Shown here one piece after another: positions 56,155 through 56,763 of a stretch of 64,000 nucleotides of DNA. The number at the start of each line of letters is the position of its first letter. Positions within the stretch are counted from its first letter, which is position 1. The translations under genes were made by a program, and so were the position numbers. The DNA is taken from NCBI GenBank assembly GCA_965113315.1, contig OZ220370.1, one strand, 5' to 3'. This stretch comes from Podarcis vaucheri (Eukaryota). The notes beneath the pieces were generated by a model that ran no database searches, was not told where the DNA came from, and saw nothing but the letters and a program-made list of their open reading frames with translations.

Positions 56155-56763
56155 TGTGCTGGTCCCGGGGGCTAACTGAGAGGCGAGGTCCGATTCCAGT
56201 CTGAGGTCAATGGTGCGGTATGGAGGCTGTCCATCAAAGCTGTAGCTGGGTCCAAGGCAGGGAGTCGGGTGGGGTCAGGAACTCTGGCAGAAGAGCAGGA
56301 CAGGGTGCAGACGGGAACAGGCTAGCAACAACATTGCTCCGGCAACCTGAGACTGGGGCTGACTGGCTTTTATCTGCCCCGAGGCATAGGGCGACCCCGG
56401 TCCACAGGTGACTCGCCTCTCCTGGCCTGGAGGCGAGCACTCCTCCTGCGGGAACTTAGTTCCCTCCGCCTCTCTGCCCTGAGCCTCTGCAGCTCAGGAG
56501 AGGCTGGAGGGTTACTGGACCCAGAGGCAACCCCCTCTTCCCCTGACGGGGCTGAGAGTGGAGCACCTGCAGGCAATGCGTCCTCCATCACCTCAGGGGC
56601 CAGAGCAGACTCAGCTGGTGCCTGCACCTGAGGATCCAGCACAGGTGAGGACCCTTCAGGCTGAGGCCCCAGCCCCGGCTCAGCTGGTTCTGGAGGCGGG
56701 GACCCCTGTGCAGGCTGGGATTCCTCAGGTTCAGCCTCTGAGTCTGAATCCCAGGCCATCACA
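56155..56763 (-). mobile_element. Solo LTR (609 bp) containing a 129-aa ORF
   Basis: TGTG...CACA termini; perfect 5-bp TSD CCTGA (56150-56154, 56764-56768); TATA-like GATAAAAG at about 56367-56374 (minus). Confidence 0.88.

Follow-up and report, generated by a model that had tools for sequence, protein, structure and literature searches.

The window, a stretch of 64,000 nucleotides from Podarcis vaucheri, carries on its minus strand a solo LTR inserted into another LTR-like element of the same design, which the initial annotation had missed. The solo LTR lies ~3 kb upstream of a DEP-domain exon on the opposite strand, an exon that we take to be DEPTOR-like. The features of the locus are:

56155..56763, minus strand: solo LTR of a lacertid Ty3/Gypsy chromovirus, 609 bp (TG…CA ends, target-site duplication, DNA contig breaks)
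56150..56154: left target-site duplication, CCTGA (5 bp; sequence)
56764..56768: right target-site duplication, CCTGA (5 bp; sequence)
56760..56763, minus strand: 5' end of the LTR (attachment sequence), in the Pol frame the last base of a Gly codon and the Val codon before Met
56370..56759, minus strand: U3 ORF of 129 aa, putative C-terminal tail of Pol/integrase in full-length elements (in-frame read-through in 6/7 chromodomain-bearing models)
56517..56759, minus strand: acidic Pro-rich linker, aa 1-81, differing in length and sequence between subfamilies (counts of invariant columns)
56430..56516, minus strand: conserved block, aa 82-110, with SNP-x-ASP, a predicted-helical basic stretch and then the motif (conservation; low-confidence model)
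56430..56447, minus strand: RRSARL, HMGN-like motif (7/8 match to RRSARLSA, position 7 differs)
56367..56374, minus strand: TATA-like GATAAAAG, which holds the stop codon of the window copy; putative promoter element (sequence)
55834..56787, plus strand: host LTR-like element of another family, holding the inserted solo LTR (right end approximate; flanking 5-mers match 3/5)
55838..56104, plus strand: ORF of the host element, 88 acidic codons, ATG at nucleotide 5 (frame open in 2% of shuffles)
59759-59944, plus strand: DEP-domain exon (E 2e-19)

The termini of the LTR are TGTGATGG … CCAGCACA on the minus strand. Its description as a solo LTR in the initial annotation is confirmed by the TG…CA ends, the 5-bp duplication and the contigs of DNA run X15, of which 62 part from the stretch at 56155, 77 at 56763 and 36 at 56764. 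Beyond these positions the contig flanks are unrelated to the window (agreement 0.35-0.37). Hence, as the contigs break exactly at the LTR ends and continue into unrelated flanks, the LTR represents a dispersed repeat family.

Dispersed SINE/LINE-like repeats are found all through the window, and the segment 56788-56900 (minus strand) is presumably a decayed fragment of a non-LTR retrotransposon endonuclease, which has no Pfam support. Longer ORFs are present at 10255-11037 (plus), 34093-34683 (minus) and 53354-54064 (plus), two of them with weak RT or zf-RVT matches, while ORFs listed across the assembly gap at 60622-60779 (158 N) are artefacts.

The open reading frame in U3

Re-reading the sequence confirmed an ATG at LTR nucleotide 5 and 129 open codons. 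The protein is bipartite as described, with a net negative charge in aa 1-90 and a net positive one in aa 91-129, and RRSARL occupies aa 105-110, corresponding to 56430-56447. The position of the stop codon inside the TATA-like sequence holds for the window copy but not as a trait of the family: the tails of sister subfamilies end three codons earlier, with 16 residues after RRSARL compared to 19 in the window ORF.

Taken alone, the window ORF is only modestly beyond chance. Among 3000 dinucleotide shuffles of the GC-rich LTR, 43% contained 129 or more consecutive codons without a stop in any frame and 6% an ATG-led run of at least this length, and in 3% the given frame of the ORF stayed open; when the basic part was shuffled, the pattern RRSxR[LI] appeared in 1.5% of cases. 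Searches of Pfam (E up to 1) and of PDB sequences (E up to 10) returned no match to the ORF, and the ESM Atlas gave no usable one. A metagenome scan for the ORF pattern returned 596 pattern matches and 0 relatives. The support for the ORF comes from its relatives and not from the window copy.

Relatives of the ORF and assignment of the element

Protein searches, which are biased toward open frames, yielded one near-length match, seven relatives in an unindexed search of 1.8 billion representatives and five among longer proteins. All named relatives are from Podarcis lizards, and several bear Retrotrans_gag and DUF4939 Gag domains. P0011, which is 90% identical over 53% of the ORF, links the subfamily of the window to a Gag of the Retrotrans_gag/DUF4939 type, and P0008 likewise connects the LTR to a DUF4939 Gag. 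P0012 (UniRef A0A670IJD3), itself retrieved through its tail, is a Pol protein of 1240 aa from a sister subfamily. It contains the domains RVP, RVT_1, RNaseH, Integrase_H2C2, rve, SH3_Tf2-1 and Chromo in the Pol order PR-RT-RNaseH-IN, and its C-terminal end is the LTR ORF, with 58% identity between this tail and the window ORF, which belong to different subfamilies. On inspection, the chromodomain (PF00385 at 1054-1101, E 6.5e-15) has the Y-W-Y cage of group I, formed by Y1054, W1075 and Y1078; the cage is defined in the available part of PMC3605345.

Judging by the domains of these proteins, the element from which the LTR derives is not a retrovirus but a Ty3/Gypsy chromovirus of Podarcis lizards. 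We take the element to be Sushi-like, a label based on its domain content and on general knowledge of the group. A tree of RT-RNaseH sequences was built from 38 of 72 usable rows, comprising the labelled rows and the best 22 of the rest; it contained no named Sushi reference, and its deep forks were weak.

The Pol reading frame runs into U3 in gene models

Past the chromodomain, P0012 continues through a stretch rich in G, R and D, as is typical of a translated polypurine tract, and G-V-M-A-W-D into the entire LTR ORF without a stop. In minus frame 2 the window LTR reads V-M-A-W-D, in the same phase as G-V-M-A-W-D of the Pol models. Six of the seven Podarcis gene models with an integrase chromodomain continue in frame into the ORF (MAW), the exception being P0024, which ends early. 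In the six read-through models, which include several junction variants, MAW is always located 54 residues after the same chromodomain anchor. The P0012 cluster has 15 members; six reach the chromodomain, five of which run on to RRSARL, and the other nine end earlier or are Gag. The junction between Pol and LTR is thereby known from automatic gene models of sister subfamilies, not from DNA and not from the subfamily of the window. The same annotation makes artefacts, in which the point where the ORF of the 5' LTR is joined to Gag is inconsistent. That the ORF extends Gag at its N-terminus was considered and rejected, as five models join the two at different points and two full gag-pol models contain the ORF at the C-terminus only. 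A Podarcis muralis RefSeq model (P0002/P0003; XP_077791897, XP_077791896) consists of a diverged copy of the ORF followed by unrelated sequence and is either a chimeric transcript or a co-opted exon.

As Pol reads in frame through the polypurine tract with a fixed spacing of 54 residues, the ORF is most likely an integrase tail of 110-130 residues encoded in U3, and not a gene of the Nef/Sag kind. Read-through into the ORF very probably also occurs in the subfamily of the window copy. The ATG sits within the integrase attachment sequence of the LTR, for which the available text of PMC3601003 gives the motif TGTYANR in Sushi, and corresponds to an internal Met of Pol (…G-V-M-A-W…), the equivalent codon being Val in P0037 and Thr in P0036. 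Because it overlaps the attachment motif and is replaced by Val or Thr in some relatives, the ATG is no sign of an independent start. In the window itself, the frame of the solo LTR, which has no upstream pol, is a passive relic and is probably not translated.

Conservation of the tail

The ORF is retained across subfamilies. Four length classes, with offsets between MAW and the motif of 88, 94, 104 and 116 residues, all hold the frame, in addition to the continuity with Pol in 6/7 models. RRSARL is invariant in 5/5 representatives, which share 49-87% pairwise identity. Along the five sequences, the invariant columns amount to 9/20, 4/20, 4/20 and 2/22 in consecutive segments of aa 1-82, rise to 14/22 over aa 83-104 and reach 6/6 for RRSARL. 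Between P0012 and P0027, 876/916 residues of the Pol body (95.6%), 54/65 of the linker (83%), 28/29 of the block and 11/16 of the end are identical; by this comparison, the block that ends in RRSARL matches Pol in its degree of conservation. An AlphaFold model of P0026 computed without an alignment (mean pLDDT 38, chromodomain unfolded) places a helix at 409-421.

Among the variants in the reads, all six listed indels with a frequency of at least 8% lie outside the ORF, although these are not independent events, and six single DNA contigs have deletions inside it. Among 40 of 238 variant rows, no variant creates a stop in the ORF and none falls within 56405-56515. A coding-type substitution bias is not seen in the same 40 of 238 rows: 5 of the 18 listed ORF variants are synonymous, which equals the neutral share (309/1161). 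A distance of 55 nt separates the end of the conserved block from the TATA-like box downstream of it, and promoter constraint could therefore explain the conservation of the block.

A candidate nucleosome-binding motif

The initial annotation had likened RRSARL to the core of HMGN proteins. Seven of the eight positions of RRSARLSA agree, but the full octamer is not present, position 7 being Q or K in all representatives. According to the accessible part of PMC12487698, the HMGN2 segment that could be resolved on the acidic patch is RRSAR, and Dsup uses RRSSRL for binding, while yeast Dot5, in the available text of PMC13347269, binds with RRSARI and requires arginines 1, 2 and 5; both RRSSRL and RRSARI function without the full octamer in these accounts (PMC12487698, PMC13347269). 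The lizard motif follows R-R-S-x-R-[L/I] and has the three arginines. Neither Pfam (E up to 1) nor PDB sequences (E up to 10) revealed similarity of the ORF to the HMGN family, and judged by its sequence the lizard protein is not an HMGN protein.

Tails of 85 relatives were examined, 79 of which have a chromodomain; in these 79, the region after the chromodomain has a median length of 31 aa. RRSxR is present in six of the 79 tails, P0012 included (shuffle mean 0.85; 1 of 1000 shuffles reached six), and the AT-hook-like RGRP also follows the chromodomain in six (P0045, P0086, P0095, P0103, P0104 and P0110; shuffle mean 0.7). Thus, short motifs with putative chromatin- or DNA-binding function recur past the chromodomain. 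A looser pattern, RRSx(1-2)R, occurs in 10/79 tails, but it was chosen after seeing the data and is discounted as evidence.

In full-length elements, translation of Pol would most likely carry on through the 3' LTR, and in the resulting integrase the chromodomain would be followed by a flexible acidic spacer, a basic helix and RRSARL. Histone marks would be read by the chromodomain, while RRSARL would hold the acidic patch, so that the integration complex is tethered. The variable acidic linker could serve as a spacer, and the conserved basic helix together with RRSARL as a second chromatin contact beside the chromodomain. For RRSARL as such, we put the role of a nucleosome acidic-patch anchor at slightly less than an even chance; otherwise, the motif may act in nuclear import or DNA binding. 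Nuclear import is just as compatible with the sequence, and a nuclear localisation signal is likewise consistent with short basic motifs. On balance, we favour as probable the overall reading of the ORF as a C-terminal integrase tail encoded in U3 and read from pol, with RRSARL likely anchoring the integration complex on the acidic patch.

A functional motif would amount to an acidic-patch anchor of the HMGN type on an integrase and would provide a compact model for nucleosomal target choice by vertebrate Ty3/Gypsy elements. One clade would then hold natural variants with chromodomain and RRSARL, with chromodomain and another tail, and with an FxGF tail alone.

Tails in the wider clade and in the host element

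In P0037 (1240 aa), the chromodomain is followed by R-G-D-G-V, an acidic linker rich in Pro and a basic end that contains no RRSxR. Its tail of 122 aa is acidic and then basic like the Podarcis tails, with a different sequence. The Anolis proteins P0094 and P0096 (Anolis carolinensis UniRef, 75 and 46 members) are Gypsy Pol proteins that have no chromodomain and end in a long acidic tail; after the integrase they contain R-G-D-S-V-M, a basic stretch, an acidic stretch and FEGF, the FEGF sites being located at 985-993 and 1011-1019, respectively. From this pattern we infer that the Anolis tails also lie in LTRs. RRSxR was looked for in the Anolis and P0037 tails and is absent from them. The Anolis FxGF tail resembles the LEDGF/HRP2-binding motifs, which the available part of PMC9987994 defines by a helix, an acidic linker and FxGF; we regard this resemblance as a lead only.

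In the RT-RNaseH tree of 38 rows, the long acidic tails of Podarcis, Anolis and P0037 form one clade (support 96/92). It is conceivable, though rather unlikely, that this reptile chromovirus clade keeps a swappable targeting module in U3 on its integrase. In lacertids, the module would consist of the chromodomain and an HMGN mimic gripping the acidic patch, and in anoles a helix-acidic-FxGF motif of the LEDGF/HRP2-binding type would replace the chromodomain, in convergence with lentiviruses, which use this host tether. Two further chromovirus-like Pol proteins, P0101 and P0102, have PF00856 (SET) past the chromodomain.

The host element starts with TGTC-ATG. Its ORF has a TGF stretch faintly like FxGF and no basic part, and is likely an integrase tail of this kind that stops early. 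No relative of it was found, and Pfam, PDB sequences and the ESM Atlas gave no usable match.

Alternative explanations

The possibility that the ORF and its motif are chance products of a GC-rich LTR is very remote. Long open runs are frequent in the shuffles (43% stop-free, 6% ATG-led) and the ORF has no match in Pfam, PDB or the ESM Atlas; however, frame and motif are retained across subfamilies that are 49-87% identical and are continuous with Pol, which already largely refutes this explanation. The initial annotation had proposed a chromatin-tethering or transactivating accessory protein made from the 3' LTR. The coding-like frame, the conserved motif and the plausibility of tethering are supported, while the stand-alone protein is not, as the Pol models run into the ORF. 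We consider improbable a separate protein that starts at the nucleotide-5 ATG and is either translated from a spliced subgenomic transcript of the 3' LTR or freed from Pol by the protease. In its favour, the Met is fairly conserved, as are the first 20 residues (9/20 invariant), the P. muralis model XP_077791897 begins with a diverged version of the ORF, and the host LTR, and presumably the Anolis elements, likewise have an ATG at nucleotide 5. Against it, there is no stop between pol and the ORF in 6/7 models, and the ATG overlaps the attachment motif and corresponds to Val in P0037 and Thr in P0036. Two RNA runs, 6-12% of each of which was read, had 351 of 12.8 million and 325 of 11.0 million records on the LTR. 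At this thin coverage, and with the tissue not recorded, they gave no sign of a subgenomic transcript and no pile-ups of starts or ends in either run. Loose ends of RNA reads at the LTR start lead into mixed flanks and not into a polypurine tract. First mates of RNA run X23 lie mostly on the minus strand, which is antisense to the ORF if the library is of the usual stranded type (strandedness is not recorded). The RNA pattern fits passive transcription of solo LTRs.

It is also unlikely, although less so than a separate protein, that Pol does read into U3 while the tail is merely tolerated, or acts as a nuclear localisation or DNA-binding signal, and that the block is mainly promoter DNA next to the TATA box. 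The distance of 55 nt between block and TATA-like box and the lack of a synonymous excess among the listed variants would agree with such a view. In addition, short read-through into the LTR is common, and 18/79 tails have at least 80 aa, some of them without the acidic/basic design. On the other hand, four length classes hold the frame over ~100 codons, the frequent indels avoid the ORF, and RRSxR is enriched just past the chromodomain in integrase tails of distant, partly fungal relatives. These observations speak against this alternative. On the preferred reading, U3 would bear a dual constraint, on protein and on promoter, and a tail encoded there would explain why spurious or chimeric gene models in lizards arise from many of the solo LTR copies.

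Comparison with known systems

HIV Nef and MMTV Sag are encoded by ORFs that overlap U3 of the 3' LTR, as separate genes on spliced RNAs. The lizard ORF resembles them in its position over U3 of the 3' LTR, but it continues the frame of pol and belongs to a non-retroviral element. The analogy to such accessory genes, which the initial annotation had drawn, is not supported: the ORF is not separate from pol in 6/7 models, and the element is Ty3/Gypsy.

The vertebrate Sushi-type chromoviruses (frog and medaka relatives) share the DUF4939/Retrotrans_gag Gag, the order PR-RT-RH-IN-chromodomain and the 5-bp target-site duplication with the lizard element, and their Pol frame meets the LTR in a similar G-V-x pattern. 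In contrast, their tails are short or have no acidic linker, and they fall outside the clade of Podarcis, Anolis and P0037.

With HMGN, Dsup and Dot5, as far as these are described in the available parts of PMC12487698 and PMC13347269, the lizard tail has in common the RRSAR core with Arg 1, 2 and 5, Ser 3 and Leu 6, and a disordered protein context. It differs in having Gln or Lys instead of Ser at position 7 and in being part of an integrase, and its binding is a prediction. A tail with a tethering function is known from MLV, whose integrase binds BET proteins through its C-terminus (PMC5053271). In the accessible text of that study, the likeness lies in a short conserved motif on a flexible integrase tail that tethers the integration complex to chromatin; the MLV tail, however, is retroviral, binds a host reader protein and is not placed in U3 (PMC5053271). 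In the literature search, which had most subscription papers, repeat databases and supplements outside its reach, no paper was found that describes an integrase bearing an HMGN-like motif, or a reptile integrase with a U3-encoded tail; an overlap of Pol and LTR may already be recorded in family annotations.

The closest parallels to the reading frame come from plants. In group A of the CRM elements, which are centromeric retrotransposons, Pol extends into the 3' LTR and a targeting domain is encoded there, according to the available part of PMC3059260. The entry of the Pol ORF into the 3' LTR is common to CRM group A and Podarcis, the Podarcis side being known from gene models. CRM elements have plant hosts and a sequence unlike the lizard tail, and their CR motif replaces the chromodomain, whereas Podarcis keeps an intact chromodomain before the tail (PMC3059260, as far as available). 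The Anolis elements, which have no chromodomain, are the closer structural match to CRM group A. Bingo1-4 and 7 of Beta vulgaris have a chromodomain upstream of the polypurine tract and an ORF extended into the flanking LTR, and are in both respects like Podarcis; they are plant elements, and the accessible text of PMC3605345 describes neither an acidic linker nor an HMGN-like motif in the extension. The plant chromoviruses are a precedent that supports Pol running into the 3' LTR in Podarcis. By this analogy, the arrangement as such is already known, and the lizard tail bearing RRSARL is to be seen as a variant of it.
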